The notes beneath the pieces are model-generated. The model had not been told where the DNA came from, searched no databases, and worked only from the letters and a program-made list of their open reading frames with translations. Shown piece after piece: positions 7,600 through 45,437 of a stretch of 64,000 bases of DNA; the first letter of the stretch is position 1; every line of letters starts with the position of its first letter. A program made the translations under genes and the position numbers. The DNA is from Alphaproteobacteria bacterium. GTDB taxonomy: Bacteria > Pseudomonadota > Alphaproteobacteria > RF32 > CAG-239. Location of the stretch: the NCBI GenBank assembly GCA_045613125.1, contig JAZLAM010000022.1:77813-141812 (forward strand). The letters are read 5' to 3'.

Positions 7600-7898
7600 C
7601 TAAAAGTCCTTTATTTACAATACATTCAACGATTTTAAACTGCTCGTTTTAAACGTACGTTTAAATCAAGCAGTTTTTTTGATGTTTTTTACATTTTTTT
7701 ATTTCTTCTAACTGTTTGAAAAACAATAAAAGACAATTTTTAAATTTTACAATTTTCTCATTTTTGCACTGATTAATTTAAACGTACGTTTAAATTACAC
7801 TACTGTTGTGTTTGAAAAGCTTGAAACATAAGCCAAAGCGCTTGGCAAATGTGTTGCTTTTTTAACACTTGTAACGTTACATATAAGGAGACTTAATT
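7600..7898 (+). promoter_or_regulatory. Conserved ~290-bp 5' regulatory/leader region (copy A) with two perfect 18-bp palindromes TTTAAACGTACGTTTAAA
   Basis: Palindromes at 7648-7665 and 7777-7794. A CCAAAGCGCTTGG near-palindrome and the RBS AAGGAGA lie before the ATG at 7899. High identity to 44190-44477. Confidence 0.45.
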
Positions 7899-8504
7899 AT
7901 GAAAAAACATATTTTATTAACCACAACGGCAATGTTGTTATCTGCCATAACTCTAAAAGCAAATGCCGATTCAAACAGTGCTCATTTAAATATAGATGCT
8001 TTATTTGTAAAGCCAATGGAGTTGGTTACTGAAAACAACCTTAAATTTGGTATGATTTTAGCCGATGAAGGCGGAAAAACGGTGATTGTGACTCCTAACG
8101 GAGATTTAGGAGAAACATCTACCGCAACTATGATATCTAAAGCATCATATAAAAACAGCTACCAAGGATCTTTTAATGAAGCCCAAATTAGACTAAAAGG
8201 ATTTCTAAATGAAGATTATGATGGTGCTGATTTTTTCGAGCCTAATGAAGAAAATATGAATATGGTATATACAGCAACTTTTGACAACAATGAAGTTGAG
8301 CTAAAAAGCAACACTGAATCTATAACGTGTGGAACAGTTACAGATTTTACTATCAAATATACAGCTGAAGATGATGATGCAATCTTACATGTAGGAGGAA
8401 CCTTAACCACTGCAGATTTGAGAGGCCAAACTAGATCATTAATGTGCCACGGTTCAACCACAGTTACAATAGTTGTAAATGAGGAAACTATGAAAAGTTT
8501 ATAA
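7899..8504 (+). CDS. Secreted/surface protein, paralog A (related to the 44478..45008 gene)
   Basis: Signal peptide MKKHILLTTTAMLLSAITLKANA. Shares KANA, TCGTVT and overall Thr/Ser-rich beta-like composition with paralog B. Same conserved upstream leader. Confidence 0.5.
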   Translation: MKKHILLTTTAMLLSAITLKANADSNSAHLNIDALFVKPMELVTENNLKFGMILADEGGKTVIVTPNGDLGETSTATMISKASYKNSYQGSFNEAQIRLKGFLNEDYDGADFFEPNEENMNMVYTATFDNNEVELKSNTESITCGTVTDFTIKYTAEDDDAILHVGGTLTTADLRGQTRSLMCHGSTTVTIVVNEETMKSL

Positions 8505-15624: not shown

Positions 15625-15627
15625 ATT

Positions 15628-16818: not shown

Positions 16819-16819
16819 T

Positions 16820-17650
16820 ATGGACTTTAAATTATCACTTAAGAATACGATTGAAAAATATGGCCTTATGGCAAAAAAATCATTAGGTCAGAATTTTTTG
16901 TTAAACCAAAATATTCCCGATAAAATTATCAGATGTTCTCTTGAAAAACAAAATTTAAAAGATTTTCAAGATAGTATTGTTTATGAAATTGGTCCCGGTC
17001 CGGGTGGCCTGACAAGAGCCATAATAAGCAACAACCCTAAAAAACTTACGGTTGTTGAAATGGATAATCGTTGTATACAAATTATGGAAGACTTAAAAGA
17101 AGAAACAAATGCAAACATGGATATAATAAATGCTGATGCCTTAAAAACAGATTTTTCAATTCTTGAGGGTCAAAATAAGCAGATAATCAGCAATTTACCT
17201 TATAATATATCAGTTCCCTTGCTTATCGGTTGGCTTAAAAAAATGCAACATTATCAGGGGTTGACTTTAATGTTTCAAAAAGAAGTTGCAGAGCGTATTT
17301 TATCTCCTATAAAAACTAAAAACTATGGCAGAATTTCTGTTTTGGCTCAATTATGCGCAAAAGTTGAAAAATTGTTTGATATTAGTCCTGAATGTTTTGT
17401 ACCTGCACCAAAAATTTGGTCAACTGTTTTATTGTTTCAACCCTCAGATGATATCAAAGATGCGCAAATTATGGAAAAAGTTGAACTTCTAACCGAAAAA
17501 GCATTCGGACAACGTCGTAAGATGATCAGACAGAGCTTAAAATCTATTGCAAATATTGATAAGGCATGTGAAGTTGCCGGAGTTAATATGACAATGAGAG
17601 CGGAAGAAATCAGCCCTGAGCAATATTACAAAATTGCAGAAAATATATAA
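16820..17650 (+). CDS. rsmA: 16S rRNA (adenine1518/1519-N6)-dimethyltransferase RsmA/KsgA
   Basis: KSLGQNFLLNQNIPDKII, EIGPGPGGLT, and conserved surA-ksgA synteny. Confidence 0.85.
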   Translation: MDFKLSLKNTIEKYGLMAKKSLGQNFLLNQNIPDKIIRCSLEKQNLKDFQDSIVYEIGPGPGGLTRAIISNNPKKLTVVEMDNRCIQIMEDLKEETNANMDIINADALKTDFSILEGQNKQIISNLPYNISVPLLIGWLKKMQHYQGLTLMFQKEVAERILSPIKTKNYGRISVLAQLCAKVEKLFDISPECFVPAPKIWSTVLLFQPSDDIKDAQIMEKVELLTEKAFGQRRKMIRQSLKSIANIDKACEVAGVNMTMRAEEISPEQYYKIAENI

Positions 17651-17656
17651 AAAAAA

Positions 17657-18478
17657 CTATAAACTCAAACTCTTAAGTAAAGCTATTTCTTCTTTCCAAC
17701 CGTTTAATTCATTAGGTGTTTCTAAAATAAAAGGCAAATGTTTTAATTTTGGATGATTGATAACATTTACAATTGCCTCAAGACCAATTGTTCCTTTACC
17801 GATTTGTTCATGCCTGTCTTTACGAGAGTTAAACGGCATTTTGCTGTCGTTAAGATGAATTGCTTTTAATTTGTTTAAGCCGATAATATTGTCAAATTGT
17901 TCTAAAACATTATCAAGCTTATTAACGATATCATAGCCGGCAGAATATATATGACATGTATCTAAACAAACACCAACTTTTTCTTTTAGGTGAACATTTT
18001 CCATAATTTGTTGAAGCTCTTCAAAAGTAGAACCTACTTCACTTCCTTTACCTGACATAGTTTCAAGTAAAATAGTGGTTGTTTGCATTGGTGTTATAAT
18101 TTTATTTAATAATGCAGATATTTTTTCAATGCCGATTTGAACACCTTGACCAACATGGCTACCCGGATGAAAATTGTAATAATTGTGAGGGATTAGTTCC
18201 ATACGTTTTAAATCATCAACAAAAACTAATTCGGCAAATTCGGCAGTATTGGGGTTATCTGAACAAGGGTTAAGAGTGTAAGGAGCGTGTGCTACAATTT
18301 TTTTATCAGGATAGATTTTCAAAAATTCTTTTATATCTTCCAAATCTAAATCTTTTGCTTTAGAGCCTTGCGGATTGCGTGTGAAAAACTGAAACGTATC
18401 AGCATCAATGGAAATGGCATTTTTTGCCATAGATACAAAACCTTTGGAAGAAGAAAGATGACAACCTAATTTAAGCAT
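17657..18478 (-). CDS. nfo: Endonuclease IV (AP endonuclease family 2)
   Basis: MLKLGCHLS...; motifs HAPYTLN, VCLDTCH and HLNDSK...RHEQIGKG. Confidence 0.85.
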
Positions 18479-23785: not shown

Positions 23786-24130
23786 ATGACTAATATTAAA
23801 ATGGAACTATCTGTTGCTGATATGAGTGCAAATGTTCATCATATACAAAAGGTAATTAAAGGAAGAAAAAAACCATTAGAAATTGAGATATATGGTCAGA
23901 AAGTTTTGTTTGTTTATGATAATATTGAAATGCCTATATCTATAAAAGATATTAATACAAGTAATAATATAATACTTGCCAAGTATGTATTAATCAATCC
24001 ATTATCGCTATTTAGCTTAATTACAAAATATAAAAAGTATGATTTTTTTAAAATATCATTTGAAGATATAGGTTTAAGGATAATGATAGATAATACTGTT
24101 TTTAGCTTTTGTGCTAAAAAAGTTATGTAA
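23786..24130 (+). CDS. Hypothetical protein (its 5' part is duplicated at 22010-22125)
   Basis: 114-aa ORF; no motif recognised. Confidence 0.35.
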   Translation: MTNIKMELSVADMSANVHHIQKVIKGRKKPLEIEIYGQKVLFVYDNIEMPISIKDINTSNNIILAKYVLINPLSLFSLITKYKKYDFFKISFEDIGLRIMIDNTVFSFCAKKVM

Positions 24131-24237
24131 AATGTATTGATATAAAAACAATCATACGTTAGCATGTTCAGATAATGTTTAAACAGACCTGTTAGTTATT
24201 CAGATAATAAATATGAGTAGGTGTTAAAGGGTTTTAG

Positions 24238-24777
24238 ATGATTAATTTAATTAGTTTTTTTAATAAATGCAAAGATGAGAAAAATGACAATATATCTATA
24301 TTGCACGATTTAGTATCCGAAGCAAAAGTGTATGTGAAAAAGAATTTTTGCCCTTGGAAAGATGATGATTATCCCGAGGTAACAGAATTTTATCAAATAT
24401 CGTACGATGGTATTTTAGAAGATGAAGATTTAGAGCCAAGCTTTTCACAAATGCTTTTTAAGTTTATAAAACAACAAGGAATATCTGAAACAGATTGTTA
24501 TAAAAATGCAAATATTGATAGAAAATTATTTTCGAAAATAAGAAGCGATGATGAGTATCAGCCTAAAAAAACAACAGTTTTTGCATTTATTATCGGTTTA
24601 AAATTAAATTTAGATGAAGCAAAAAAATTATTGGAGTGTGCCGGATATTCTTTATCCCACAGTAAAAAACAAGACATAATAATAGAATATGCAATCAAAA
24701 AACAAATTTATGATATAAACATGGTTAATGAAATTTTATATACTTTAGAATGTCAAACTTTAGGTAGTAAAGAGTAA
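24238..24777 (+). CDS. Putative helix-turn-helix (XRE-like) regulatory protein
   Basis: FSQMLFKFIKQQGISETDCYKNANIDRKLFSKIRSDD...TVFAFIIGLKLNLDEAKKLL resembles a Cro/C1-type HTH. Confidence 0.4.
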   Translation: MINLISFFNKCKDEKNDNISILHDLVSEAKVYVKKNFCPWKDDDYPEVTEFYQISYDGILEDEDLEPSFSQMLFKFIKQQGISETDCYKNANIDRKLFSKIRSDDEYQPKKTTVFAFIIGLKLNLDEAKKLLECAGYSLSHSKKQDIIIEYAIKKQIYDINMVNEILYTLECQTLGSKE

Positions 24778-24808
24778 AATTTTCCAATAAGAATAATGTA
24801 TTATAAAA

Positions 24809-24833
24809 ATCCCCCTCATATTAATGAGAGGGA
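24809..24833. terminator. Bidirectional terminator hairpin ATCCCCCTCAT-ATTA-ATGAGAGGGAT + T-run
   Basis: Lies between the convergent HTH gene and thrS. A related hairpin occurs at 26382-26404. Confidence 0.45.
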
Positions 24834-24841
24834 TTTTTGTT

Positions 24842-26119
24842 TTATAAATCTAAGCTTCTGTTTCTTATTTTTTCAGACACTCGTTCCATAAAATCGGCAA
24901 GAGAAACATTGTTTATTTGCTTAGAGTTTCTTAATCGAACGGAGATATTGTTATTTTCCACTTCTTTATCGCCTACAATAACAATATATGGAATTTTTTT
25001 CTTAACAGCATCTCTAATTTGATAAGAAATCGTATTACCGGAAATATCAGCTTCTGCACGTATATCATTTTCTGACAATTGCTGTTGAATCTGAAGAGCT
25101 ACACTTTGGTGCCTGTCAGATATTGGCAAAATTTTAACCTGAACAGGTGATAACCAAACCGGTAATTTACCTTCGCATTGTTCCAGATAAACACCTATAA
25201 AGCGTTCGATAGAACCTAAAATTGCACGATGTAACATAATCGGCACATGCTTTTGTCCGTCTTCACCGATGTAGAACATTCCCCACTTTTCCGGTAAATT
25301 TAAATCAAGTTGTATCGTCATACATTGCCATTCTTTACCGTTTTTATCGATTGCTTTAACATCTATGGCCGGTCCGTAAAATTTTGCACCGCCGATATCT
25401 ATGTCATATGGAATGTTTTTATCTTTTAACACTTGTTCGACTGATTGTTCTGCCATCTGCCAAATTGGTTCATTATCAATATATTTATCTTTTTTGCTTT
25501 GCAAATCTCTGATAGAAAAATAAACTTTGAATTTATCATAACCAAAAACTTTATTGATGGCAAAACCGAAATCAAACACTTTTGAAAGTTCTTCCATAAA
25601 TTGATCTTGGCGACAGATGATATGTGCATCATCTTGCGTAATTGATCGAACACGTAACAATCCTTGCAAACCGCCGGATGCTTCATAACGATAAACATTT
25701 CCCAATTCGCAATATTTAATCGGCAACTCTTTATACGAGTGTATAGAAGAATTATAAATTGCCACATGAAAAGGACAGCTCATCGGTTTCACATAATAAG
25801 CGCCCTGCTCTTCTTTGTCTTTTAACGACATATCCATTAGCGGATACATACAATCGGCAAAATGTTCCAAATGGCCGGATTTTTCCCATAACTGTTTTAA
25901 TCCCACAACTGGAGAATATACATATTTATATCCGGCTTTTTGATGTTCTTTTTTCCAAAAAGATTCAATTTCGTTTCGTATAATTGCACCATTCGGATGC
26001 CATAAAGCCAGTCCGGAACCTATATAATCGTTGAAAGAAAATAAATCTAATTCTTTACCGATACGACGATGGTCGCATTCGGACACACTTTGTTTTTCAT
26101 CTATATTAATGTTATTCAT
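24842..26119 (-). CDS. thrS: Threonyl-tRNA synthetase-like, catalytic core + anticodon-binding domain only (lacks N-terminal TGS/editing domains)
   Basis: HRRIGKELDLF, LWEKSGHLEHF, KPMSCPFHVAIY, RVRSITQDDAHIIC (class II motifs of ThrRS). 425 aa versus about 640 for canonical bacterial ThrRS. AT-rich non-coding sequence lies upstream. Confidence 0.75.
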   Translation of the reverse strand: MNNINIDEKQSVSECDHRRIGKELDLFSFNDYIGSGLALWHPNGAIIRNEIESFWKKEHQKAGYKYVYSPVVGLKQLWEKSGHLEHFADCMYPLMDMSLKDKEEQGAYYVKPMSCPFHVAIYNSSIHSYKELPIKYCELGNVYRYEASGGLQGLLRVRSITQDDAHIICRQDQFMEELSKVFDFGFAINKVFGYDKFKVYFSIRDLQSKKDKYIDNEPIWQMAEQSVEQVLKDKNIPYDIDIGGAKFYGPAIDVKAIDKNGKEWQCMTIQLDLNLPEKWGMFYIGEDGQKHVPIMLHRAILGSIERFIGVYLEQCEGKLPVWLSPVQVKILPISDRHQSVALQIQQQLSENDIRAEADISGNTISYQIRDAVKKKIPYIVIVGDKEVENNNISVRLRNSKQINNVSLADFMERVSEKIRNRSLDL

Positions 26120-33757: not shown

Positions 33758-36373
33758 TTACATGTTAAAGTTATAATCACCTTCATACGCATACCAATAA
33801 AGTTTTTCAATTTCTTCGATTAAAGGATAGCGTGGGTTTGATCCGGTGCACTGGTCGTCAAATGCAAGAGTCGGAAGTTCTTCCATAGCTTTTGCAAAGT
33901 CTTCTTTGGAAACACCCCATTCCTTGATTGATGCCGGAATGTTAACCGCTTTCTTAAGGTCCTCAACAGCCTTAATTAAGTTATCAACTTTTTCATCGTC
34001 TGTTTTACCTTTTATACCAAGTCCTTCGGCAAATGCAGCATAGGCAGCTTTTGCATTCGGATAACGATATTGTGGGAATACAGCTTGTTTTGCTGGGCAA
34101 TCGGTTGCATTGTAACGAATTACTTGAGAAATAAGTAAAGCGTTTGCAACACCGTGCGGGATATGGAACGCTGCACCTAATTTGTGAGCCATAGAGTGGC
34201 ATACACCCAAGAAAGCGTTAGCAAATGCCATACCGGCAATTGTTGCCGCATGGTGCATTCTTTGACGAGCGTTTGCGTTAGATGTGCTATAAGACTGAGG
34301 TAAGTATTTCATAACCAAATTAGCAGATTCTAATGACAAGCCTCTTGTATATTCAGTAGCCATTGAAGAAACGTAAGATTCAATAGCGTGTGTAAATACA
34401 TCAATACCCGATGCTGCGCACAAACCTTTAGGCATTGTTAAAACCAAATCAGCATCTACAATTGCCATTGAAGGCGTTAATACATAGTCTGCAATGGCGT
34501 ATTTAATTCCGGTTGAATCATCTGTGATAATAGAAAACGGTGTAACTTCAGAACCGGTACCCGATGTTGTCGGAATTGCAACAAGCTCTGCTTTATTTCC
34601 AAGTGAAGGGAACTCAAAAATACGTTTTCTGATATCCATAAAGCGCATTGCCAAATCTTCAAATTTGAGTTCCGGATGTTCATACATAATCCACAAAATT
34701 TTAGAAGCATCTATTGGGGAACCACCACCTAAAGCAATAATCACGTCAGGTTGGAAAGTGTCAATCATAGATTTTGCTTTGTTAATTGTTGTTAAGTCAG
34801 GATCAGGTCTAACATCAGAGAAAATTTGATATTGAATACCAAGAGGCGCTAAAATATCAGTAATTTTTGCTGTGTAACCCAAATCAAACAAAGGTTTATC
34901 TGTGATAATAAAAGCTCTTTTTTTGCCAGCTAATTCTTTTAACGCAAGTCCTAAACAACCTGGCTTGAAATAAATTTTCGGTGGAACCTTAAACCACAAC
35001 ATATTTTCTTCTCTTTTTGCAACAGATTTAATATTCATAAGATGTTTTACTCCTACATTTTCACTAACAGAGTTTCCGCCCCAAGAACCACAACCTAAAG
35101 TCAATGATGGCTCAAGTCTAAAGTTATACACATCACCGATTGCACCTTGTGATGCAGGACAGTTGATTAATACACGACCTGTATGTAACAAATGGCCATA
35201 ATGTTTAACACGTTCGTCATTGTTTTGATCCGTGTATAATACTGAAGTATGTCCGTTACCACCAAAAGTGACCAAATCTTTAGCTAGTTTTGCTGCAGAT
35301 TCATAATTGTCAGCTTTATACATTGCTAAAACAGGTGATAACTTCTCAGCTGAAAAAGGTTCTTCCACACCTACTTTTGAGGCCTCAGCAATCAAAACTT
35401 TTGTTTCAGGAGCAACTTTTATATCTGCCATAGCTGCAATAGTTGCCGCTTTCTGACCAACAATTGCAGCATTTAATTTGCCGTCAATCATAATTACTTT
35501 CCCGAGTTTTTCTTTTTCGGAAGCGCTCAAAATGTAGGCACCACGTTTTAAGAATTCTGCTTTAACGGTATCGTAAATTTCTTTAACTGCAATTACGGAT
35601 TGTTCAGAAGCGCAAATCATACCACTATCAAAAGTTTTTGACATTAAAATTGAGCTAACAGCCATTTGAATATCTGCTGTTTCATCAATAACGGCAGGAG
35701 TATTACCGGCACCAACGCCTAAAGCAGGTTTTCCGGAAGAGTATGCTGATTTAACCATACCCGGACCACCGGTAGCTAAAATAATATCAACATTGTTATG
35801 CTGCATCAACTTTTGTGTTCTTAAAATACTCGGCTCATCAATCCAACCGATAATATTGTCAGGAGCTCCAGCAAGTACAGCTTCTTCAAGCATAATGCGA
35901 GCTGCTTCAACAGTACATTTTTTAGCTCTCGGGTGTGGTGAAAAGATAATACCGTTTCTTGTTTTTAATGCAATCAATGTCTTAAAAATTGCAGTAGATG
36001 TTGGGTTTGTTGTCGGAATAACTCCGGCTATAACACCTATTGGTTCTGCCATTTTTATCATTCCGTTATCTTTATCTTCTTCTAATATACCACAAGTTTT
36101 TGTATTTTTAAATTTATTATAGATATATTCAGAAGCAAAATGGTTTTTAATTACTTTATCTTCAACAACGCCCATGCCAGTTTCTTCAACTGCCATTTTA
36201 GCAAGAGGGATTCTTAAAGAACTCATTTTCAAAGCAACACGACGGAAAATATAATCCACTTGTTCTTGTGAATATTCAGCAAATTTTTTCTGTGCCGCAC
36301 TTACTTTTGCGACAAGATCATCTATGTATTGTTGTTCAGCTACATCATCAATATTTACATCGGTTTGAGCCAT
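33758..36373 (-). CDS. adhE: Bifunctional acetaldehyde-CoA/alcohol dehydrogenase AdhE
   Basis: 871 aa. N-terminal ALDH domain (catalytic Cys region GMICASEQS) and C-terminal Fe-ADH domain (GGGSPIDASK). Confidence 0.9.
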   Translation of the reverse strand: MAQTDVNIDDVAEQQYIDDLVAKVSAAQKKFAEYSQEQVDYIFRRVALKMSSLRIPLAKMAVEETGMGVVEDKVIKNHFASEYIYNKFKNTKTCGILEEDKDNGMIKMAEPIGVIAGVIPTTNPTSTAIFKTLIALKTRNGIIFSPHPRAKKCTVEAARIMLEEAVLAGAPDNIIGWIDEPSILRTQKLMQHNNVDIILATGGPGMVKSAYSSGKPALGVGAGNTPAVIDETADIQMAVSSILMSKTFDSGMICASEQSVIAVKEIYDTVKAEFLKRGAYILSASEKEKLGKVIMIDGKLNAAIVGQKAATIAAMADIKVAPETKVLIAEASKVGVEEPFSAEKLSPVLAMYKADNYESAAKLAKDLVTFGGNGHTSVLYTDQNNDERVKHYGHLLHTGRVLINCPASQGAIGDVYNFRLEPSLTLGCGSWGGNSVSENVGVKHLMNIKSVAKREENMLWFKVPPKIYFKPGCLGLALKELAGKKRAFIITDKPLFDLGYTAKITDILAPLGIQYQIFSDVRPDPDLTTINKAKSMIDTFQPDVIIALGGGSPIDASKILWIMYEHPELKFEDLAMRFMDIRKRIFEFPSLGNKAELVAIPTTSGTGSEVTPFSIITDDSTGIKYAIADYVLTPSMAIVDADLVLTMPKGLCAASGIDVFTHAIESYVSSMATEYTRGLSLESANLVMKYLPQSYSTSNANARQRMHHAATIAGMAFANAFLGVCHSMAHKLGAAFHIPHGVANALLISQVIRYNATDCPAKQAVFPQYRYPNAKAAYAAFAEGLGIKGKTDDEKVDNLIKAVEDLKKAVNIPASIKEWGVSKEDFAKAMEELPTLAFDDQCTGSNPRYPLIEEIEKLYWYAYEGDYNFNM

Positions 36374-36533
36374 AATTGTTTTTCTCCATAAAATAGTTTT
36401 TTTCGCGTGTATAATGACAGATAAAATTAATTTCTCAACCTATTTTATAGTCTAATCCAATCAACAATTATTACTAAATTGTTGTAATTGTTTTTAATAC
36501 ACAATATAACAAATTGTATTGATTTTAAGTATT

Positions 36534-39500
36534 TTATTTACGTTTTGTAATAGTTCCTTTTGAAACAATTTCAGCACCTGTTGATATTTTTAAGAAAGAT
36601 TCTGTTTTTTCCGTATTCTCAACAGTCTTATTTTTGTTTTGCGGAGACAATGGTTTGGTAATTATTCCACTTGTAGCCATTTTAGATTTGTATGCAACAG
36701 TATTATCTATTGCTTTTATAATTGGTTTTTGTTCAATTTGTTCCTCTATTTTGCTTTCTTTATTTTGTAGCAAAACAGATTCTTTTTTTGAATCTTCAGA
36801 TACGTGCAATACACCTGTTTTTTCTGTTTCAGAACTTAAATGTTCTTTTTTATAGGTAGTATTTTTGACATCTTCATTATTTTGTTGCGCAGCATCTTCT
36901 GTAATAAATGGTTTTCTAACAGATTGTTTTACTGTCTTTTCCGGTTGCTTTGACATATCTGTTTGAACATCATTAACTTTAATTAACAAAGGAGGTTCCG
37001 ATAATAGCGATGTTGTATTTTTCTCTGATACATTTACATCTTCTTTTACCTTTAGTTCATTATCAGTTTTTTGCCCTTCTTCAACAATCATAATTTTTGA
37101 TTTGATTTTTGAACTTTCTTCAATTACGGCAGATTTATCCGGTAACACACTTTTATCATCGGCTAAAGGTTCTCCTTCTTGTACAGCCTTAAGAGCCAAC
37201 TGTTTTTTCAGCGCTTCATCTTCTTCTAACCTTACTATATTTTTTGCATATTCAAACAAATTTTCCACTGAGGAATTAAGATTAATTATTTCTGAATTTG
37301 TTTTTTCTAAAATTTCTTTTATCATCTGATAATCAAGCTCTATTTCCTTAATTTTATTAGAATTATTAATCTCATTTATAAGACCTAGAGCTTTATTATG
37401 CAGATTTGCAATACTACGTAGAGATGTTTCTATCTTATTTTTATAATCTGTTGCTTGCGGTTCATTATCTAAAATTATTAAAGACTTTATCTCTATCAGA
37501 CGCTTAACATATACATCTAAAGTATCTTGATAGCTGATACCCTTTTTCAATGAATTGACATAAATATTGTTAATATTATCGTACATACCATTAGAAATAT
37601 TTTTAAGATCGGCAATATAGTTTTCATCTAATTCTCTATCTAAATCCGCCAATTGTGTATCAAAGATTTCAGTATTTGTATTTGTAACATCTATATCTCC
37701 TTCATCAAACTCTTGTTTAGCGCGTTGTTGTAATTCTTCTAACTGAAATTTCATATCTTGTGCAACAATATTTATACTCTTGTAGTTTGCTCTACTTATA
37801 GCATTACTACTTGTTTGAGAATATTTTTTAAATCGTGGAAAAATTTCCGTATCTATCAACTCTAGCAACTCTGAAACTTTTTCTTGCGCCACAGACATTC
37901 TTTTTTGCAAATCTTTCTGACGATTTTTTTCCGCAATTTCTTTTTCTATACGAACCTTTTCCCAATAACTGTCATATTTATTTTTTAAAGCTAAACTATT
38001 AATAACAACATTAGGATTATTTAGACTACCGGTCCATTGATATTCTATCGGAACAATTTTATCTTTCAGTTGATTAAATGTTAAAGTAAAATCAGAATTT
38101 ATGGTCCAATCAGATAAATTAACCATTCCAGAAGCTATTATTTTTGCTTGTTCGGTTTCTAATAAACTATTAACTATTGAAATATTACCATCTGTGATAT
38201 CAAAATCCGTTACTATCCTATAAAATAAACTTTCTCCGTTTTGCAAATTTGTTCTGAGCATATCATATAAATTATCTGAATGCGTACGATGTCTGACATC
38301 TTCTTCAATAGCCAATAAATTCCATCCTTTAAATTTTGTATCGGTAAAATCCATAGAAACAGAAGCGTTTAACCCTTTTATAAAGTTCATAGCAGATGAT
38401 ACGGGAGCTTCAAATTTTATATTAGAATTAACCTTACCTGATAAAAATTCATATCTCTTTCCACCTATTTTTGATACATCATAATCCTGAATTTCAAAAT
38501 TACCTTTAATTTTTGCGGCAGAATTAACATCAAGAGATACATTTGCCTTTATTGGAGCATCTTTAATTTGGGCTGTTATATTATCAATAGTAATCAAGCC
38601 TTTCTTAATTTCAATACCTGCAGAAACATTTTCGAAATCTTTATTTTTTATACTAAATATATCAGCACTGAATTTTCCCGCTAAATCAAATTTTTTATAA
38701 ATATCATAATTTATAGGTATTGTATCAAAAACCGGTTGTTCTAAAAAGTTCAATGAATTATCCACAGTCTTTGTCTTTTTAACTGATTTCACAGCTGAAT
38801 TTTCTGGATTATAAATAAAACGATCAAATTCAAATTTGTTTGCATGCATAGTCGCATTTATTTGTGGATAGCCATCATTTATCACAGATATATCACCTTT
38901 AAAATTATTTGATCCGACAAATGCGTCAATATCTTTTGCACTCCAATTTTGAGAATTGCCTTCTATATTGCCTTTAAATGTGAAAATATTAGCCGTGATA
39001 TATTGAGGTCTGTAGTTAAAACCGATACGATTTATAAAATCAACAAAATCCGCAGAACGAAACTCTAAACTTCCTTTATAATTTAGTTGATTGTTTTCGT
39101 TATACAAACGTCCGGAATACACCGAACTTAATTTATCTGATGTAGTAACAGCTTTAATATTTATGCCATTTATATCACCTGTTACAATACCCTTTGCATT
39201 AAGATTATCAGTTTCTCTTATAAATTGTAAAAAAGGCATATCTAATGGAACTTTTTTCAAAAAATTTGTCATTTTTGAAGTTTTGAAATTATACTTAACA
39301 TCTTTAAAATGTGGGATATCTGACATCTCTAAAATATCTCCGGACATATTAAATAAAGCATCGTTAATATTTTCAATATTCAGTTTTTCAATTTTTACAA
39401 CATCGTTATCTGATATAAAACTTAATGTGTTTTTTTCAAAACTTGAGTTATTATATATACCTAATCCAAGCTTGATATGTGCAGCTATGTCATAATCATT

Positions 39501-41156
39501 CAAAAATGATAATTTATTCAAAATAAGTTTTATTTTCTCATTTATCGGTAAAGCTTTCTCTTCCTCTGTAAAAGATGGTATATAGTTATCAAAATTTATA
39601 TTATCAATTTCTAAATTCAAGAATATACTTTTACGAGCATCTCTTACAAGACCTATACTGCCAAACATATTAGTTTTATCTACCGTAAAGCTAAAAGGTG
39701 TAATGTTTATTTTATTCAAATTACCGGACACAGCCAAATTAACAGAAGCGTTATGATAAGTAGATTGAGCATAAATTTGAGGTTTAATATTAATAAGTTC
39801 CAAAAATTTTAAAAAATCCTGACTCATTGCTTTAATGTTAAAATTGTAAGTCAATAGCTGTTCATTTTCAAAAACATCTCCATTAACACTCATATCCGTA
39901 TCTCCTGATAATAAACCGGAAAGTTTTTTAACAGTTAAGATATTATCAATAAAATCAACACTTAAATCAAAATTTCGTATAGGTTGACCATTAAAATTAG
40001 CCTTCACAGCCTTGATATCAGCAATCATATCAAAATCTGAGTATAGAGTATAAGGTTTTTGGTTGTTATCAAATTTTTTAATTTGTTCTTTTATTATTCC
40101 GATTATAGGCATTAAATCCAAATCTGTCATTTCAAAAGAAGCTTCTACTTTTCTTCTTTCTTCATTGGGATTCGGTTTTAACGGAATAATAATGTTTCCG
40201 GCTCCCGTCGTATTATCACCATATTTAATCACAAAATTAGATAAATCTATTTGTTGTTCATTTGTGATAAGCTCAATAGAACAAGCCAACGGATAATTAA
40301 ATTCCTCCGGTAAAATAAGTTGATTAGTCAATTCATTTATAAAATTTGAAAGTTTTTTTGATTCTAAAACAAAATTTCCTTTAATTTCCTTATTACTCGA
40401 CAACATTGATCCATCAAAACGTGCATAACTTTCAGTTGTAGGATGTGTGAGAACTAAATTTAAGGAAGTTGCAAAATTTTCCGATAATGTTCCCAAATTT
40501 AATGCAAAACCCGCCGGATTATTATCTTTTACAAAATTACCGTCAATGCGATACGGACCAAATAAACTTTCTGCCGTAATCTCAGCATTAAGTTCTTGCA
40601 AATTAACATCAATATTAAGTCCTTTGTTTAAAATATGAACAACAGAATCTTTCAACAAAACACTATTCAACGACACTTCAACCGTATCTAACTTATTTTT
40701 CTGAAAATCTGTTATCTCTGAATACCAATTTAATTTACCATTTTGTAAAAACTCAATCATGATATCAGATTTAATTAAAGACATATTGTTTATAACAAAG
40801 TTGCCCTGTATCAACGGAATAAGCGATAAATATGTAACCATCTCTTGAATAGATGCCAGTGGCTGATTAGTATTTTCACCGGTTTTATTATAAACTTTAA
40901 TATCCTTTGCTGATAAGTAAGGAACTGGAAAAAATGAAAGTGATACAGGCCCTTCAAATACAATTTTTTTACCGGAGATTTCTTCAAATTGCTTGGCAAT
41001 TTTGTTTTTATGCAGATTCCAGTCAATTGTCGAAACGTAAACCGACAATCCGCCAAAGGTAAGGACAACCAGAATAACCAAAATCAAGAATATTTTTTTG
41101 AACACTTTTAAAATCTCCTGTAATAAACGCCAAAAAATCTTTGCTAAATATAACAA
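36534..41156 (-). CDS. Giant AsmA/TamB-like inner-membrane-anchored outer-membrane biogenesis protein (1540 aa) with a long charged/coiled C-terminal extension
   Basis: N-terminal TM followed by the AsmA signature ...KIVFEGPVSLSFFPVPYLSAKDIKVYN; predicted beta-rich repeats; C-terminal K/E-rich low-complexity region. Confidence 0.55.
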   Translation of the reverse strand: MLYLAKIFWRLLQEILKVFKKIFLILVILVVLTFGGLSVYVSTIDWNLHKNKIAKQFEEISGKKIVFEGPVSLSFFPVPYLSAKDIKVYNKTGENTNQPLASIQEMVTYLSLIPLIQGNFVINNMSLIKSDIMIEFLQNGKLNWYSEITDFQKNKLDTVEVSLNSVLLKDSVVHILNKGLNIDVNLQELNAEITAESLFGPYRIDGNFVKDNNPAGFALNLGTLSENFATSLNLVLTHPTTESYARFDGSMLSSNKEIKGNFVLESKKLSNFINELTNQLILPEEFNYPLACSIELITNEQQIDLSNFVIKYGDNTTGAGNIIIPLKPNPNEERRKVEASFEMTDLDLMPIIGIIKEQIKKFDNNQKPYTLYSDFDMIADIKAVKANFNGQPIRNFDLSVDFIDNILTVKKLSGLLSGDTDMSVNGDVFENEQLLTYNFNIKAMSQDFLKFLELINIKPQIYAQSTYHNASVNLAVSGNLNKINITPFSFTVDKTNMFGSIGLVRDARKSIFLNLEIDNINFDNYIPSFTEEEKALPINEKIKLILNKLSFLNDYDIAAHIKLGLGIYNNSSFEKNTLSFISDNDVVKIEKLNIENINDALFNMSGDILEMSDIPHFKDVKYNFKTSKMTNFLKKVPLDMPFLQFIRETDNLNAKGIVTGDINGINIKAVTTSDKLSSVYSGRLYNENNQLNYKGSLEFRSADFVDFINRIGFNYRPQYITANIFTFKGNIEGNSQNWSAKDIDAFVGSNNFKGDISVINDGYPQINATMHANKFEFDRFIYNPENSAVKSVKKTKTVDNSLNFLEQPVFDTIPINYDIYKKFDLAGKFSADIFSIKNKDFENVSAGIEIKKGLITIDNITAQIKDAPIKANVSLDVNSAAKIKGNFEIQDYDVSKIGGKRYEFLSGKVNSNIKFEAPVSSAMNFIKGLNASVSMDFTDTKFKGWNLLAIEEDVRHRTHSDNLYDMLRTNLQNGESLFYRIVTDFDITDGNISIVNSLLETEQAKIIASGMVNLSDWTINSDFTLTFNQLKDKIVPIEYQWTGSLNNPNVVINSLALKNKYDSYWEKVRIEKEIAEKNRQKDLQKRMSVAQEKVSELLELIDTEIFPRFKKYSQTSSNAISRANYKSINIVAQDMKFQLEELQQRAKQEFDEGDIDVTNTNTEIFDTQLADLDRELDENYIADLKNISNGMYDNINNIYVNSLKKGISYQDTLDVYVKRLIEIKSLIILDNEPQATDYKNKIETSLRSIANLHNKALGLINEINNSNKIKEIELDYQMIKEILEKTNSEIINLNSSVENLFEYAKNIVRLEEDEALKKQLALKAVQEGEPLADDKSVLPDKSAVIEESSKIKSKIMIVEEGQKTDNELKVKEDVNVSEKNTTSLLSEPPLLIKVNDVQTDMSKQPEKTVKQSVRKPFITEDAAQQNNEDVKNTTYKKEHLSSETEKTGVLHVSEDSKKESVLLQNKESKIEEQIEQKPIIKAIDNTVAYKSKMATSGIITKPLSPQNKNKTVENTEKTESFLKISTGAEIVSKGTITKRK

Positions 41157-41211
41157 TACTGTATAGTATTATTAATATAAATCAACTAATTTTTGATTAA
41201 GGAGATAAAAA

Positions 41212-41613
41212 ATGTCAAAATTAGTTTCACTTTTTGAATTGGCATTAAAAGCCAGAGACAATGCTTATGCTCCATATTCGGGGTTTAAAGTAGGTGCAGC
41301 AATACTTTCATCAACTCTTAACACATATTTGGGGTGCAATGTGGAAAATGTTTCATATCCTTGCGGGACATGTGCTGAAGCCGGTGCTGTATCGGCAATG
41401 AATGTAAACGGAGACAAGCTGATAAAAGATATTGTTATCGTAGCCGATTCTCAAAATCTGATAACGCCATGTGGAGCATGTTTACAAAAAATATTTGAAT
41501 TTTCGGATAATAACACCAATATTCACTTAGCTGATTTAAGCGGAATTAAAAAAAGCTATAAGATATCTGAGCTTTTACCTTCAGCTTTTGATGAAAAGGA
41601 ATTAAAAAAATGA
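41212..41613 (+). CDS. cdd: Cytidine deaminase (homotetrameric type)
   Basis: Zinc motifs CGTCAE and PCGACLQ. Confidence 0.85.
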   Translation: MSKLVSLFELALKARDNAYAPYSGFKVGAAILSSTLNTYLGCNVENVSYPCGTCAEAGAVSAMNVNGDKLIKDIVIVADSQNLITPCGACLQKIFEFSDNNTNIHLADLSGIKKSYKISELLPSAFDEKELKK

Positions 41614-42410
41614 TTGATACATACGTACAAAACTTAAAAAAAGAACTGGGCAACAAAAAGCCTGACACACTGCTTATTTTAGGTTCAGGTCTTGGTTCTC
41701 TTGCCGATGAAATTAAAAACAAAGTTATTATTGAATATGAAAAAGTAGGTTTCCCTAAAAGTTCGGTTTCAGGACACGCCGGTCAATTAGTTGTCGGCAC
41801 ATTAGGTAAAACCGAGGTCATTTGTATGCAAGGTCGTTTTCATCTTTACGAAGGACATCATCCTGAGCTTATAAAAAATGTGATGTGTGCATTTAAGGCT
41901 ATCGGGGTTAAAAAGTTGATTGTTACAAATGCAGCCGGTTCATTAAATGCAGATATGCCGGCCGGCAGTTTAATGCTTATATCCGATCATATCAATTTTA
42001 GCGGTAAAAATCCGCTTTTAGGTGCAAATGACGAAAAATATGGCCCACGTTTTGTAGATTTGAGCAACGCTTATGATGTAGATTTGCGCAATAAAATTAA
42101 AAAAATTGCCGAACAATCAGATTTAAAACTATATGAAGGTGTATACCTTATGGTTTTGGGACCAAACTTTGAAACAGCAGCCGAAATTAGGGCTTTTAAG
42201 ACATTAGGCGCTGATGCTGTTGGTATGTCAACTGTTCCGGAGGTTCTATCTGCTATTTATACCGGCATGAAAGTTTTGGGCGTTTCGGTTATAACAAATT
42301 TAGGAACCGGATTAAAAACTTCCGTACAAAGCCATACAGAAACATTGGAACAAGCGCAAAAAGCAACTAAAAAATTGGCAAAATTGTTAAAAGAATATAT
42401 GGAGAAATAA
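41610..42410 (+). CDS. Purine nucleoside phosphorylase (trimeric PNP/XapA/PunA type)
   Basis: LILGSGLGSLADEI, SGHAGQLVVGTLGKTEVICMQGRFHLYEGH, GMSTVPE. Confidence 0.85.
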   Translation: MIDTYVQNLKKELGNKKPDTLLILGSGLGSLADEIKNKVIIEYEKVGFPKSSVSGHAGQLVVGTLGKTEVICMQGRFHLYEGHHPELIKNVMCAFKAIGVKKLIVTNAAGSLNADMPAGSLMLISDHINFSGKNPLLGANDEKYGPRFVDLSNAYDVDLRNKIKKIAEQSDLKLYEGVYLMVLGPNFETAAEIRAFKTLGADAVGMSTVPEVLSAIYTGMKVLGVSVITNLGTGLKTSVQSHTETLEQAQKATKKLAKLLKEYMEK

Positions 42411-42411
42411 G

Positions 42412-43716
42412 ATGTTTCCTCAAGAAATTATCCGCAAAAAAAGAGATGGTAAAACCTTAAGTTCCGAAGAAATAAGTTTCTTCGTAAAAGGTATAACGGA
42501 CGGTTCAATTGCAGATAGCCAAACAGCAGCTTTGACAATGGCAATTTTCCTAAACGGTTTTGATAAAAAAGAAACTGTTGATTTAACATTGTCTATGCGA
42601 GATTCCGGCGATGTCTTAAAATGGGATTTAAACGGTCCGGTTATTGATAAACATTCCAGCGGTGGTGTAGGAGATAAGGTTAGCCTGATGTTAGCTCCAA
42701 TTTTAGCATCGTGTGGCGGTTTTGTTCCGATGATTTCGGGTCGAGGCTTGGGACACACCGGCGGAACGCTTGACAAGTTTGACTCCATACAAGGCTATAA
42801 CACATTACCGACAAACGAATTGTTTGTTAAAACAGTTGAAGATGTGGGATGTGCCATAATCGGGCAAACCGGAAATTTGGCTCCGGCAGATAAAAAAATT
42901 TATGCAATCAGAGATGTATGCGCCACAGTCGAATCCATTAATTTAATCACAGCTTCAATTTTATCTAAAAAATTGGCCGCCGGATTAGACTATTTGGTTA
43001 TGGACCTAAAATGCGGTAACGGTGCTTTTATGGATAATGTAAATGATGCATTGGTTCTTGCTCGTTCTATTGTAGATGTTGCAAACGGTGCAGGAACAAA
43101 AACAACCGCACTTATCACTAATATGAGCGAGGTTTTAGGCTATACGGTTGGTAATGCTTTAGAGGTTAAAGAAGCCGTTGATTATTTGAAAAATCAAAAT
43201 ATCAATAAGCGTTTAGATCTTGTCACAAAAGAACTATGTGCCGAACTTTTGGTTTCTTGCGGTTTATATAAAAACAAAGATGATGCTTTGGCAAAAGTTT
43301 GCAAAGTTTTAGCAAACGGTGAAGCTCTCGAAAAATTTGCTAAAATGGTTTCTATGCTTGGTGGTCCGGCAGATTTCACAGAAAATCCTGAAGCATATAT
43401 GCCAAAAGCACAAATTATCAGACCTGTGTTTGCTGATAAGAAAGGATATATTTCTGCTATGCAAACAAGAGATATCGGTATGTTAATCGTAGGTTTAAAA
43501 GGCGGACGTGTTCATCCTGATCAAAAGCTTGATTACGCAACCGGATTTAGCAGTTTTTGCCAAGTTGGAGATTATATTGATGAAAAAACTCCGCTTGCTT
43601 ATATCCATGCACAAAGCGAGGAAGAGTATCAAAAAACAGCTGACGAACTTAAAAAACTTGTCCAAATTGAAGACGAATATAAGCTTTCTCCGGTGATTAT
43701 TGATACGGTTAAATAA
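42412..43716 (+). CDS. deoA: Thymidine/pyrimidine-nucleoside phosphorylase
   Basis: IRKKRDGKTLS.EEI..FV.G...G...D.Q..A..MAI, SGRGLGHTGGTLDK, and a C-terminal domain. Confidence 0.8.
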   Translation: MFPQEIIRKKRDGKTLSSEEISFFVKGITDGSIADSQTAALTMAIFLNGFDKKETVDLTLSMRDSGDVLKWDLNGPVIDKHSSGGVGDKVSLMLAPILASCGGFVPMISGRGLGHTGGTLDKFDSIQGYNTLPTNELFVKTVEDVGCAIIGQTGNLAPADKKIYAIRDVCATVESINLITASILSKKLAAGLDYLVMDLKCGNGAFMDNVNDALVLARSIVDVANGAGTKTTALITNMSEVLGYTVGNALEVKEAVDYLKNQNINKRLDLVTKELCAELLVSCGLYKNKDDALAKVCKVLANGEALEKFAKMVSMLGGPADFTENPEAYMPKAQIIRPVFADKKGYISAMQTRDIGMLIVGLKGGRVHPDQKLDYATGFSSFCQVGDYIDEKTPLAYIHAQSEEEYQKTADELKKLVQIEDEYKLSPVIIDTVK

Positions 43717-43801
43717 GTTATATTAAAAAAGGACCATATGTCTGTTTTAACAAAGTGTTTTTTGAATTAGTTAAATCACTTTTACTGTCATCAACCCAGT
43801 T

Positions 43802-43859
43802 AAAAAATAATATTGTCACCGCTCCGAGCAAAAAAAATAATATTGTCACCGCTCCGAGC
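43802..43859. repeat. Tandem duplication of a 29-30-bp unit (AAAAAATAATATTGTCACCGCTCCGAGC)
   Basis: Two adjacent near-identical units read directly. Confidence 0.55.
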
Positions 43860-44016
43860 GGAGCGAGGTCAAGCGGTCTTCAAATTAATAAAAAAAACTC
43901 ATCGGGAGCGATGTAAAATAATTTTTAAAAGTGGAAGATGCCTTGACGATTCCTTGCGGAATCGAGGCATGACGGTATTATATTTTCGTTTCGGAGGCAT
44001 GACGTAAAAAACACTG

Positions 44017-44113
44017 TCATCGCTCGATTGCGATAAGCAATCGTTCAGCGGTCTTCAAATTAGTTAATCGGAAGGTCCCTTGACGTTTCTTGGCAGAAAC
44101 GAGGGAAGATAGG
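44017..44113. repeat. GC-rich structured repeat (MITE/RPE-like), copy 1; copy 2 at 45160-45256
   Basis: About 97 bp at roughly 95% identity between copies. Contains palindrome CGATTGCGATAAGCAATCG and hairpin TCCCTTGACGTTTCT...AGAAACGAGGGAAGA. Extra partial units (GGAAGATGCCTTGAC...GGAGGCATGAC) occur around 43930-44000 and 45110-45145. Confidence 0.55.
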
Positions 44114-44189
44114 TTTGTGTTTTTTTGCATTTTTATGGCATAAAATTGGGATTTTTTTCAGCAAATGAGAATCGGTGAAAACCATTTAT

Positions 44190-44477
44190 TTACAATGGTT
44201 TGAAGAATTTCAAACTGTTCATTTTAAACGTACGTTTAAATCAAGCAGTTTTTTTGATGTTTTTTTCGAACTTCTATTTCTTCTAAATCTTTGAAAAACA
44301 ATAAAATGCAAATTTTAAATTTTGCAAATTTCTCCTTTTTACACTGCGTCAAAAAAACGTACGTTTAAATTACACTACTTATGTGCTGAAAAAACTTGGA
44401 AATCTGCACCAAAGCGCTTGGTGTGGTTGTTCGTTTTTTTAGCCTATGTAACGTTATATAAATAGGAGATTTTTATT
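44190..44477 (+). promoter_or_regulatory. Conserved ~290-bp 5' regulatory/leader region (copy B), highly similar to 7600-7898
   Basis: TTTAAACGTACGTTTAAA at 44223-44240, half-site AAACGTACGTTTAAA at 44355-44369, CCAAAGCGCTTGG, and RBS AGGAGA before the ATG at 44478. Confidence 0.45.
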
Positions 44478-45008
44478 ATGAAAAAAACTTTATTACTTGC
44501 CACAACCGCAATCGTTTCTGCTTTCGCTTTTAATGTAAAAGCTAACGCCCCAACAGTTGAAATTCAAGCTAAAGCTAAGGTAGTATCACCAAGTGTGTTA
44601 GAATCTATACAAGAATTAGATTTTGGCACAGTTGCATATCATTCTGGAGCTCGTTACACTGTTTCTAAGGATGGGACAGCTGAAGCAAGCGGTGATTATG
44701 CACAAATGTTTGGAACTCCTTCTGTCGGAAAAATCAAATTGAGAACAGCCCTCAGAGGTGCTAGTGAGCATTATTCTTTGTTACTACCTCAGGAAATGGA
44801 ACTAAAATTTGGTCAAAACACTTGTGGAACAGTGTCCGCTTTTTCACAGGCAACACCAACTTTTGTAAACATAGTTGACGGTGTAACTGATTACGAAATA
44901 GCATTTGGTGGCACCTTTACTATGTCTGATACACTTGAAGCGAGCATTCATCATGATGGAGCAGTTTGCTCAGGTTCTGCGACAGCTACTTTAGTGTATA
45001 CAGAATAA
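44478..45008 (+). CDS. Secreted/surface protein, paralog B (related to the 7899..8504 gene)
   Basis: Signal peptide MKKTLLLATTAIVSAFAFNVKANA; shared TCGTVS and KANA motifs. Confidence 0.5.
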   Translation: MKKTLLLATTAIVSAFAFNVKANAPTVEIQAKAKVVSPSVLESIQELDFGTVAYHSGARYTVSKDGTAEASGDYAQMFGTPSVGKIKLRTALRGASEHYSLLLPQEMELKFGQNTCGTVSAFSQATPTFVNIVDGVTDYEIAFGGTFTMSDTLEASIHHDGAVCSGSATATLVYTE

Positions 45009-45159
45009 TACACAAATGTATGTTTTTTCATTTCGGGGTGTGGAGTTTTTGCTCTGCACCTCGATGTGGTTATAATATAGAGTGAATAAAAATTATACTT
45101 TGTTTTATTCGGAAGATGCCTTGACCTCACTTCATTCGGAGGCATGACTGTCTACAAAG

Positions 45160-45256
45160 TCATCGCTCGATTGCGATAAGCAATCGTCCAGCGATCTTCA
45201 AATTAGTTAATCGGAAGGTCCCTTGACGTTTCTTGGCAGAAACGAGGGAAGACAGG
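45160..45256. repeat. GC-rich structured repeat (MITE/RPE-like), copy 2
   Basis: See the feature at 44017-44113. Confidence 0.55.
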
Positions 45257-45437
45257 GGGAATTTTTCTTAACGTTTTGGAGGCATGACTTTTTTTATTTT
45301 TTGCAGTTCGGAATCATAACATGGTTTATCTAAACAAGGTATAATTTTTTATAGTTTCAGACAGATTAAAATAAGAACTAAACCTTAATTTTAAGCATTA
45401 TAAAAACTTAAAATTATGAACAACAGGAGAAAAACTT

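Follow-up and report, generated by a model that had tools for sequence, protein, structure and literature searches.

Tagged hairpin repeats around a DUF4402 gene in an alphaproteobacterial genome: a probable long-stem class of the CGTC-REP/Ssn-related repeats

The 64,000-nt stretch analyzed here (the window, part of contig JAZLAM010000022.1 of an alphaproteobacterium of the CAG-239 group) carries a gene at 44478-45008 (+) for a 176-aa secreted protein of the DUF4402 family (Pfam PF14352, E = 1.4e-08). Long intergenic stretches lie on either side of it, with the thymidine phosphorylase gene (deoA) ending at 43716 and a glycosyltransferase gene starting at 45438, and both stretches hold GC-rich hairpin repeats, cluster A upstream of the DUF4402 gene and cluster B downstream of it (45112-45288). 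When both strands are read, every repeat piece is a copy or half of one ~40-nt unit. We consider it likely that the locus is a two-part cluster of lineage-specific, long-stem repetitive extragenic palindromes (REPs) with CGTC/TGTC tags, related to the NTS and SRM hairpins of the Ssn nucleases, and that these units are expected Ssn targets and breakpoints of rearrangement. The repeats are thus a long-stem variant of the known CGTC-REP/Ssn-related system and not a new type of element.

An earlier reading of the same sequence (the first-pass annotation) had reported ~97-bp GC-rich copies flanking the gene, and a direct repeat of 103 nt, 95% identical, is indeed found on both sides of it (44011-44113 and 45154-45256), with a core of 94 nt at 97.9% identity (44016-44109 and 45159-45252). 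A 40-nt probe from this repeat has no other match in the window, and 0 of 100 shuffles matched. The 97-nt piece is not the basic element, as had been supposed, but a doublet: a plus unit is joined through a 14-nt linker to a minus unit, with the GTC tags outermost. Its internal palindromes fold as claimed, at -36.5 kcal/mol (z = -4.1) as RNA and -21.1 kcal/mol (z = -5.5) as DNA, with three hairpins in both folds. The hairpin units have 50-68% G+C, compared with ~33% for the window. The shorter related units GGAAGATGCCTTGAC and GGAGGCATGAC are both present and over-represented in the window, the latter with five matches at one mismatch or fewer against 0.2 expected; read on the other strand, the two are opposite ends of one ~40-nt unit. 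The perfect tandem duplication at 43802-43859 is also real (100% identity, 1.9 copies by TRF). The copied string is 28 nt followed by a 2-nt spacer, and the period is therefore 30, not the 29 originally given.

Seven full units (U1 to U7) occur in the 64-kb window, all inside 43845-45253, as found with a head/tail regular expression and with a covariance model. The model was built from the units of other genomes and run on the window without filters; it gives E values between 1e-09 and 1e-21 for the seven, and the next match has E = 0.37. Plus units begin at 43845, 44016 and 45159, while minus units occupy 43934-43973, 44071-44110, 45112-45148 and 45214-45253, and the units bear TGTC or AGTC tags. 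The features of the locus, in window coordinates, are:

43786..43793, plus strand: orphan tag TGTCATCA, at the end of the match to a 98.4%-identical strain (locus L001)
43802..43859, plus strand: tandem duplication of period 30; each repeat contains the 5' half of U1 together with the GTC tag and the A/T-rich flank on its 5' side
43815 and 43845, plus strand: head motif GTCACCGCTC, marking a half unit at 43815 and the start of U1 at 43845
43845..43881, plus strand: U1, short-inner-stem subfamily, GTCACCGCTCCGAGCGGAGCGAGGTCAAGCGGTCTTC; 32.3 bits, E = 1.5e-09
43900..43913, minus strand: probable 3'-part remnant of a minus unit, CATCGGGAGCGATG, with a mutated tag; resembles the unit ends ...GAGCGATGAC
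43934..43973, minus strand: U4, reading GAAGATGCCTTGACGATTCCTTGCGGAATCGAGGCATGAC on the plus strand; 63.7 bits, E = 1.3e-21; closest to the family consensus
43994..44003, minus strand: half unit (tag and outer-stem arm), GAGGCATGAC on the plus strand; head motif, repeat family D4
44016..44110, no single strand: doublet 1, consisting of U2 (plus, 44016-44056), the linker AAATTAGTTAATCG and U6 (minus, 44071-44110, tag mutated to ATC); 43.2 and 40.7 bits
45112..45148, minus strand: U5, short-inner-stem subfamily; 35.8 bits, E = 6.5e-11
45159..45253, no single strand: doublet 2, consisting of U3 (plus, 45159-45199), the linker and U7 (minus, 45214-45253, GTC tag intact); 52.8 and 47.1 bits
45279..45288, minus strand: half unit, GAGGCATGAC on the plus strand, then a T-run; head motif, repeat family D4
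45307-45320: a more degenerate half unit

Doublet 2 is a direct copy of doublet 1 at 95-98% identity. U4 taken singly has a DNA fold of -11.5 kcal/mol (z = -5.6). Near-identical counterparts of U1 are found in other genomes, and U5 is 1 nt away from a variant found four times in other genomes, with two copies in L101, a locus that bears an ssn gene. The tandem duplication at 43802-43859 is present in one relative (L210) and absent from another (L211).

A scan of one genome per species with the pattern GTCAYSSCTCN{8,24}GTYMAGSSRYCTTC returned at least 115 stretches. About 90% of the stretches among the matches listed are from metagenome-assembled genomes (MAGs) of ruminant or gut Alphaproteobacteria, often with many contigs per genome; nine are apparent chance matches in unrelated bacteria. 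A structure-defined harvest, which left head and tail free, yielded 180 units in alphaproteobacterial loci among the matches listed, and none in shuffles or in the non-alphaproteobacterial chance loci. With a relaxed definition the number rises to 238, giving 180-238 units in ~0.8 Mb of related MAG loci. The unit frame is thus found at hundreds of unrelated sites in ~40 related genomes. These data agree with the description of structured, compositionally distinct, dispersed repeats in the first-pass annotation: the element is neither restricted to this locus nor devoid of conserved structure, as copies are dispersed and, as shown below, their stems covary.

The units conform to the consensus [A/T-rich]-GTC-AYSSCT-[inner hairpin]-TC(A/C)-AGSSRT-CT(T/A)C over ~40 nt. 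An unpaired GTC tag is followed by a composite stem, made of a 6-bp foot (AYSSCT/AGSSRT), a 3-nt TCA bulge and an inner stem of 7-10 bp, and then by an invariant C. Among 139 distinct units, GTC is present in 138, the C directly 3' of the stem in all 139, and an A at the first stem base likewise in all 139; the second base is T in 130 and pairs with the ...AT on the 3' side. The base before GTC is T in 75 of these units, A in 37, C in 25 and G in 2. The 15 nt on the 5' side are A/T-rich and nearly free of G, and the C after the stem is followed by T(T/A)C and then nAWTT. Of 180 units, 136 have the tail CTTC and 28 have CTAC, which reads GTAG on the other strand; the share of the latter is underestimated because the scan pattern forced CTTC (GAAG on the other strand).

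The pairing of the stem is seen most directly at the SS/SS positions of the foot, which are complementary in 112 of 113 distinct alphaproteobacterial pattern matches, compared with 25% by chance and with two of eight in the non-alphaproteobacterial chance matches. The scan pattern behind this count set no pairing requirement. An ungapped alignment of 27 units (A2) shows 100% pairing at each of the 13 pairs, nine of which have changed on both sides, with a covariation score of 0.607 as compared to 0.128 in shuffles and at most 0.12 in slid registers. Alignment A2 was chosen for pairing, and therefore the pattern-match test is the unbiased one. The inner stem is hypervariable even inside one genome, with 11 variants among 21 units of a single MAG while foot, bulge and tags stay constant, and G-T pairs are present in the unit stems. 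These observations show that the structure of the unit is under constraint and that its stems covary strongly.

The units are essentially intergenic and lie mostly at the 3' ends of genes: 45 have convergent neighboring genes, 56 tandem ones and 12 divergent ones. Singletons are the commonest form (70). Neighboring units are paired with tags outward in 49 cases, tags inward in 20 and in tandem in 26, and the tags-outward doublets shown span ~98-130 nt, near the size of the copies in the window. The first-pass annotation had proposed a check for target-site duplications; the longest direct repeats at the borders of 48 doublets have about the same distribution as those at 240 random controls, and none stand above them. 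First motif searches found no units in the loci of deoA relatives, and relatives with 86-90% deoA identity carry other genes after deoA.

Chenal et al. (Nat Commun 2025, PMC11893778) have named the Ssn family (cd10448) of GIY-YIG single-strand DNA endonucleases and have already published the association of repeats with the ssn gene. A search for open reading frame families that recur near the units brought up a set of 95-97-aa GIY-YIG proteins (Pfam PF01541, E ~1e-16). In three loci (L037, L101 and L128) the gene lies between two inverted units, with a minus-orientation unit 0-25 nt after the stop codon and another unit upstream, and inverted unit flanks around ssn are found in L212-L220 as well. 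A metagenome scan with the GIY-YIG protein alignment gave at least 586 homologs. For 85 of the homologs, the nearest upstream hairpin is in plus orientation in 31 cases and minus in 9, and the nearest downstream hairpin is minus in 33 and plus in 7, which places the tags outward. At the median, the tagged hairpins stand 13.5 nt past the stop codon and 28.5 nt ahead of the start codon, and their density near the homologs (~2 per kb) is ~9x the background of 0.22 per kb elsewhere. The canonical NTS, CGTCATTCCCGCGAAAGCGGGAATCCAG, flanks many of the 85. The catalytic residues align with an offset of one residue, Y7/Y18/E65 in the L101 protein and Y6/Y17/E64 in Neisseria SsnA. From their size, the Pfam GIY-YIG match and the canonical NTS flanks of 50-70%-identical homologs, we infer that the GIY-YIG genes of this clade are ssn genes of the cd10448 type. 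A sequence search returned no informative NCBIfam family or PDB structure for the protein.

One pair of loci ties the nuclease gene to the site under study. In L212/L213 the gene order is DUF4402 (41% aa identity to the window), units, ssn, three units, a GT2 gene (82% aa identity) and another GT2 gene, and ssn occupies the same intergenic site as cluster B of the window. A second ssn variant (P0138) comes as a cassette of ~0.5 kb: a plus unit, CTTCAAATTA, a TTGACA/TATAAT promoter, ssn, TTAATTCGAAG and a minus unit. The shared stretch of the cassette is ~490-545 nt, 91-98% identical, and its flanks are otherwise unrelated in L215, L216 and L217, that is, in at least three contexts. The linker of the window doublet, CTTCAAATTAGTTAATCGGAAG, equals two cassette junctions joined without the ssn gene. 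The doublet thus shares the ends of the cassette but lacks the gene, and it therefore reads as a gene-less miniature of the ssn cassette.

Two further observations concern the surroundings of ssn. Upstream of the gene in L213 (9780-9940) there are six tandem half-unit copies, ...AGCAACATTCCTCGGAGGGATGAC, with a period of ~33-35 nt, an array that resembles the half units and the tandem duplication of the window and that suggests slippage or repeated aborted copying at unit ends. In addition, most close Ssn homologs sit on very short contigs of 0.5-1.5 kb, which fits assemblies that break at the repeats on either side of the gene; ssn genes may in consequence be systematically lost from binned MAGs.

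In the classification of Di Nocera, De Gregorio & Rocco (BMC Genomics 2013, PMC3733652), REPs form two superfamilies, one tagged with GTAG and the other with CGTC. The CGTC REPs are mostly found in Alphaproteobacteria, have TGTC (frequent) and CCTC as tag variants, start their stem with A-T/T-A and occur prevalently as tags-outward dimers; they include Neisseria dRS3 and Rickettsia RPE-4 and RPE-6, they "apparently lack a dedicated transposase" and they show no association with RAYT genes (PMC3733652). The families CGTC-1 to CGTC-4 have 8-9-bp stems, 4-5-nt loops and a CCA tail (PMC3733652). The present units share with the CGTC REPs the xGTC tag, the A-T then T-A start of the stem, alphaproteobacterial hosts, the prevalence of tags-outward dimers, convergent or co-directional gene placement and the absence of a RAYT association. 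In contrast to CGTC-1 to CGTC-4, they have a composite bulged stem and a CT(T/A)C tail, and their inner stems are far more diverse within one genome than those of CGTC REPs. The comparison with Rickettsia palindromic elements (RPEs) in the first-pass annotation was apt, as RPE-4 and RPE-6 belong by literature classification to the CGTC superfamily (PMC3733652), whose tag and stem start the present units share. RPEs are often inserted in frame into open reading frames; the units here are essentially intergenic.

The likeness to the Ssn-associated hairpins extends to function-bearing positions. The NTS hairpin, of which dRS3 forms part, is bound by Neisseria SsnA when single-stranded and not otherwise, and the enzyme cuts a few nt upstream of it; cutting depends critically on the 3 nt that precede the palindrome, and binding on the C that follows it (PMC11893778). 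The invariant GTC and C of the units fall at these same positions. For the Neisseria enzyme the sequence of the palindrome matters as well, NTS-ssnA-NTS has been likened to an insertion sequence, and NTS sites concentrate around membrane and host-interaction genes (PMC11893778). Shared with SRM/NTS are the directional hairpin with GTC just 5' and C just 3' of the stem, a length inside the 20-50 nt SRM range, inverted flanks of a ~95-aa single-domain GIY-YIG gene in relatives, and clustering beside surface- or membrane-protein genes of host-associated bacteria. The differences are a two-tier stem (6-bp foot, TCA bulge, 7-10-bp inner stem), whereas SRM/NTS has one 8-9-bp palindrome, and a CT(T/A)C-nAWTT tail, whereas the tail there is CYRG. 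The ends of the SRM nevertheless fit the 180 units, GTCWY the 5' end in 177 and RNCYNB the 3' end in 173. The full published string, HGTCWYN(0-2)YYVSBRHN(0-5)WNVSBRGN(0-2)RNCYNB, matches 58 sites in the 312 kb that surround metagenomic ssn homologs, and in alphaproteobacterial MAG loci it picks out 11 short canonical sites. As a separate observation, short canonical SRM hairpins (e.g., TGTCATCCTCGGGTTTAACCCGAGGATCCAG) are found along with long-stem units in some of these genomes, at L025, L028, L038, L048, L088, L096, L125 (MAG CALYAY01) and L041, and the two classes of unit may share one host.

The first-pass annotation had suggested that the copies around the gene could promote its duplication or deletion, and a comparison with close relatives speaks for this. 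Positions 1-9623 of L001 align to 34174-43793 of the window at 98.4% identity over 9.6 kb. The alignment ends at 43793, at the end of the orphan TGTCATC tag, and past a 5-nt gap L001 continues into a doublet unit whose best match is 45158-45191, with copy 2 slightly above copy 1, where the contig ends. This junction means that 43794-44015 at least, and perhaps the DUF4402 segment in its entirety, is missing from L001. Two other relatives are ~93% identical to the window. In L211, a single cluster that fuses clusters A and B comes after the DUF4402 gene and before the same glycosyltransferase, while L210 has a 229-nt cluster block duplicated in tandem and a different 3' neighbor. The order of unit blocks thus differs from that of the window in three independent relatives, with differences in copy number in the latter two, and the junctions of L001 and L210 both lie at the TGTCATC tag.

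These results can be combined into a mechanism. Once single-stranded, the DNA of a unit would fold into a hairpin that is the expected binding site of a small Ssn-family GIY-YIG nuclease, and such a nuclease would, to judge from Neisseria SsnA, cut a few nt upstream of the tag. Units accumulate in intergenic DNA and, on this view, serve as breakpoints and as homology for local rearrangement, which accounts for the direct copies that bracket the gene, for the tandem duplication and for what differs from strain to strain. An Ssn-type nuclease is the likeliest candidate for what recognizes the folded single strand, a link that the first-pass annotation missed. Ssn cleavage may by analogy with Neisseria take place in this organism, and the units may affect recombination or transformation of the bracketed gene.

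A further step is possible, though on balance we think it doubtful: the 97-nt doublet may be a non-autonomous miniature of the ~0.5-kb Ssn mobile cassette, with Ssn as the mobilizing enzyme of CGTC REPs, such that cargo bracketed by units, for instance the DUF4402 gene here, would be moved, duplicated or deleted via Ssn cuts at the hairpins on either side. This is drawn from the cassette in at least three contexts, the linker made of its junctions, the syntenic ssn gene and the breakpoints at tags. If it were true, Ssn would be the GIY-YIG counterpart of the RAYT/REPIN pair.

Several points weigh against the units being Ssn-related CGTC-REP hairpins that act as Ssn targets and breakpoints. No ssn gene was found in the 64-kb window by tblastn; this organism may lack the nuclease, and its units may be relics. 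The published SRM string has no match in the window and none among the 180 long units, and the stem length, loop and CT(T/A)C tail of the units are unlike the definitions of CGTC-1 to CGTC-4. Since the inner stem is hypervariable, nothing but the foot, bulge and tags would be left for the nuclease to recognize. The units of the window, seven in all, are confined to one locus in 64 kb, and copy number in this genome may therefore be low; U6 has an ATC tag, and the first stem pair is mismatched in U6 as well as in U7. Finally, L210 and L211 are short metagenome contigs with repeats, for which misassembly is possible.

The explanation that the units act on RNA, as 3'-UTR stabilizers, terminators or insulators in the expression of deoA, the DUF4402 gene and the glycosyltransferase genes, has some evidence in its favor and is in our view unlikely. 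E. coli REPs stabilize upstream mRNA, which is a precedent, and the units here lie mostly 3' of genes, in the counts given above (convergent 45, tandem 56, divergent 12), contain G-T stem pairs and are predicted to form stable RNA hairpins. However, both unit orientations occur at one site, and the hairpins are followed by CTTC-nAWTT and not by a T-run, so that the terminators proposed in the first-pass annotation are not borne out: a terminator scan gave only two incidental minus-strand matches that overlap unit fragments. A promoter scan of the locus showed no enrichment. Nor is there an Rfam family match, the region giving only noise (E >= 6.8) with permissive thresholds, with three tRNAs elsewhere in the window, and ARAGORN found nothing at the locus. 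The unpaired GTC and C fit a recognition frame for a DNA nuclease, and SsnA is inactive on RNA (PMC11893778). A role in RNA could still be a secondary effect beside the Ssn-related explanation. Two identities suggested by the shape of the elements were also rejected. The cloverleaf-like fold of the doublet, which recalls a tRNA-like RNA or the RNA of the signal recognition particle (SRP), consists of three hairpins, namely two units and the paired tails; and by eye there are neither the R''/R' core sites nor the element-wide palindrome of an integron attC site.

The remaining explanations concern how the repeats came to be where they are. Mobilization as GTAG-type REP/REPIN elements by a RAYT, an IS200/IS605-like tyrosine transposase, would account for several features: read on the other strand, the units start with G(A/T)AG followed by a bulged palindrome, the CTAC tail is present in 28 of 180 units despite a scan that forced CTTC (136 of 180), and inverted ~100-nt doublets are common and, as in REPINs, lack target-site duplications. 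REPIN/RAYT systems, reportedly described by Bertels and Rainey in 2011 and by Nunvar in 2010, also resemble the present one in the compensatory stem changes and in the single small nuclease gene that is flanked. Yet the gene that the units do flank encodes a GIY-YIG nuclease, where a RAYT system would have an HUH/Y1 transposase, the tag that does not vary is GTC, at the opposite end from where GTAG would stand, and the stem starts A-T/T-A as in the CGTC REPs that have no RAYT association. A tblastn search of the window and ~0.9 Mb of unit-bearing loci found no RAYT homolog (best E = 0.1, an unrelated open reading frame), a negative that is weak given its approximate E. coli YafM query. We therefore regard a RAYT origin as very unlikely. 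A purely local duplication, meaning one copying event around the gene of a segment that has no identity or function beyond it, fits the restriction of the units to this locus within the window and the 95% identity of the 103-nt copies, as expected of a recent duplication. Local duplication did occur, of elements from a dispersed family, but as a complete explanation it is refuted by the scan of the genome collection, with its hundreds of sites in ~40 genomes, the covarying stems and the conserved enzyme partner, and we hold it to be exceedingly improbable. We give almost no credence to a classical MITE (miniature inverted-repeat transposable element), one that descends from an insertion sequence with its own transposase gene, terminal inverted repeats and target-site duplications; the first-pass annotation had likened the repeats to MITEs. 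The doublet ends are inverted and a longer, gene-carrying version with the same ends exists, but direct repeats at the doublet borders are no longer than at random controls, singletons are the commonest form, and the enclosed gene encodes a 95-aa GIY-YIG nuclease, which is not a known transposase.

The bracketed gene itself has relatives within and beyond the window. A DUF4402 paralog lies at 7899-8483, and the orthologs in L210 and L211 have 84% protein identity. The leader region of the DUF4402 gene (44114-44477) contains an inverted repeat on TTTAAACGTACGTTTAAA, with arms at 44223-44249 and 44343-44369 that are 81% complementary and 93 nt apart, and leader sequence recurs at 7637-7705, upstream of the paralog. 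Both L210 and L211 start inside this inverted repeat, which looks like a fold-back assembly artifact. At 1403-1459 of L210, after the doublet, a fragment matches the part of the paralog that encodes the signal peptide (7910-7966) at 82% identity and may be a truncated paralog. In L212/L213, positions 12641-18036 encode a 323-aa DUF4402 protein, then a PapD_N-like chaperone and then a ~1200-aa CarboxypepD_reg protein; this order suggests that DUF4402 proteins are subunits of a chaperone-usher-type surface fiber. Elsewhere in the window, cumulative GC skew has its maximum near 25 kb and the genes switch from mostly plus to mostly minus (convergent), which suggests that the region of the replication terminus is at ~24000-25500.

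Genes of the type IVb pilin-like kind (Bundlin/PilS matches) are found in 15 of 106 unit-bearing loci, among them L064, L067, L069, L086, L094, L100, L112 and L113 of MAG JAFUSA01, and L022, L042, L080, L103, L106 and L120. In five of the JAFUSA01 loci (L067, L069, L094, L100 and L112) the end of a unit lies exactly 21 nt before the pilin homology, in constant relative orientation, and the homology starts at about the position of the N-terminal methylation motif in L042b. This arrangement is reminiscent of the repeat-flanked pilin cassettes of Neisseria. Locus L047 (CAJOPF010000097.1), labelled Candidatus Gastranaerophilales, is a 3.7-kb contig on which two long-stem units occur along with a pilin-like gene of a type characteristic for the alphaproteobacterial clade; coming from a cyanobacteria-related bin, it is probably mis-binned.

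Taken as a likely long-stem class of CGTC-REP/Ssn-related hairpins, the units would extend the system of Ssn nuclease and hairpin repeat to uncultured rumen and gut Alphaproteobacteria. The published motif misses this class, and surveys that rely on it will therefore undercount. The contrast between a variable but always paired inner stem and the constancy of foot, bulge and tags yields a prediction of what the nuclease recognizes in the hairpin, and this prediction would be useful in developing Ssn enzymes as tools for single-strand DNA. The cassette in several contexts, together with doublets that lack the gene, makes the question of whether Ssn spreads CGTC REPs, posed since 2013, directly testable. 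Finally, the occurrence of the repeats around surface-protein genes, DUF4402 here and type IVb pilin-like in relatives, as in Neisseria, hints that such repeats may play a part in the dynamics of host-interaction loci in general.

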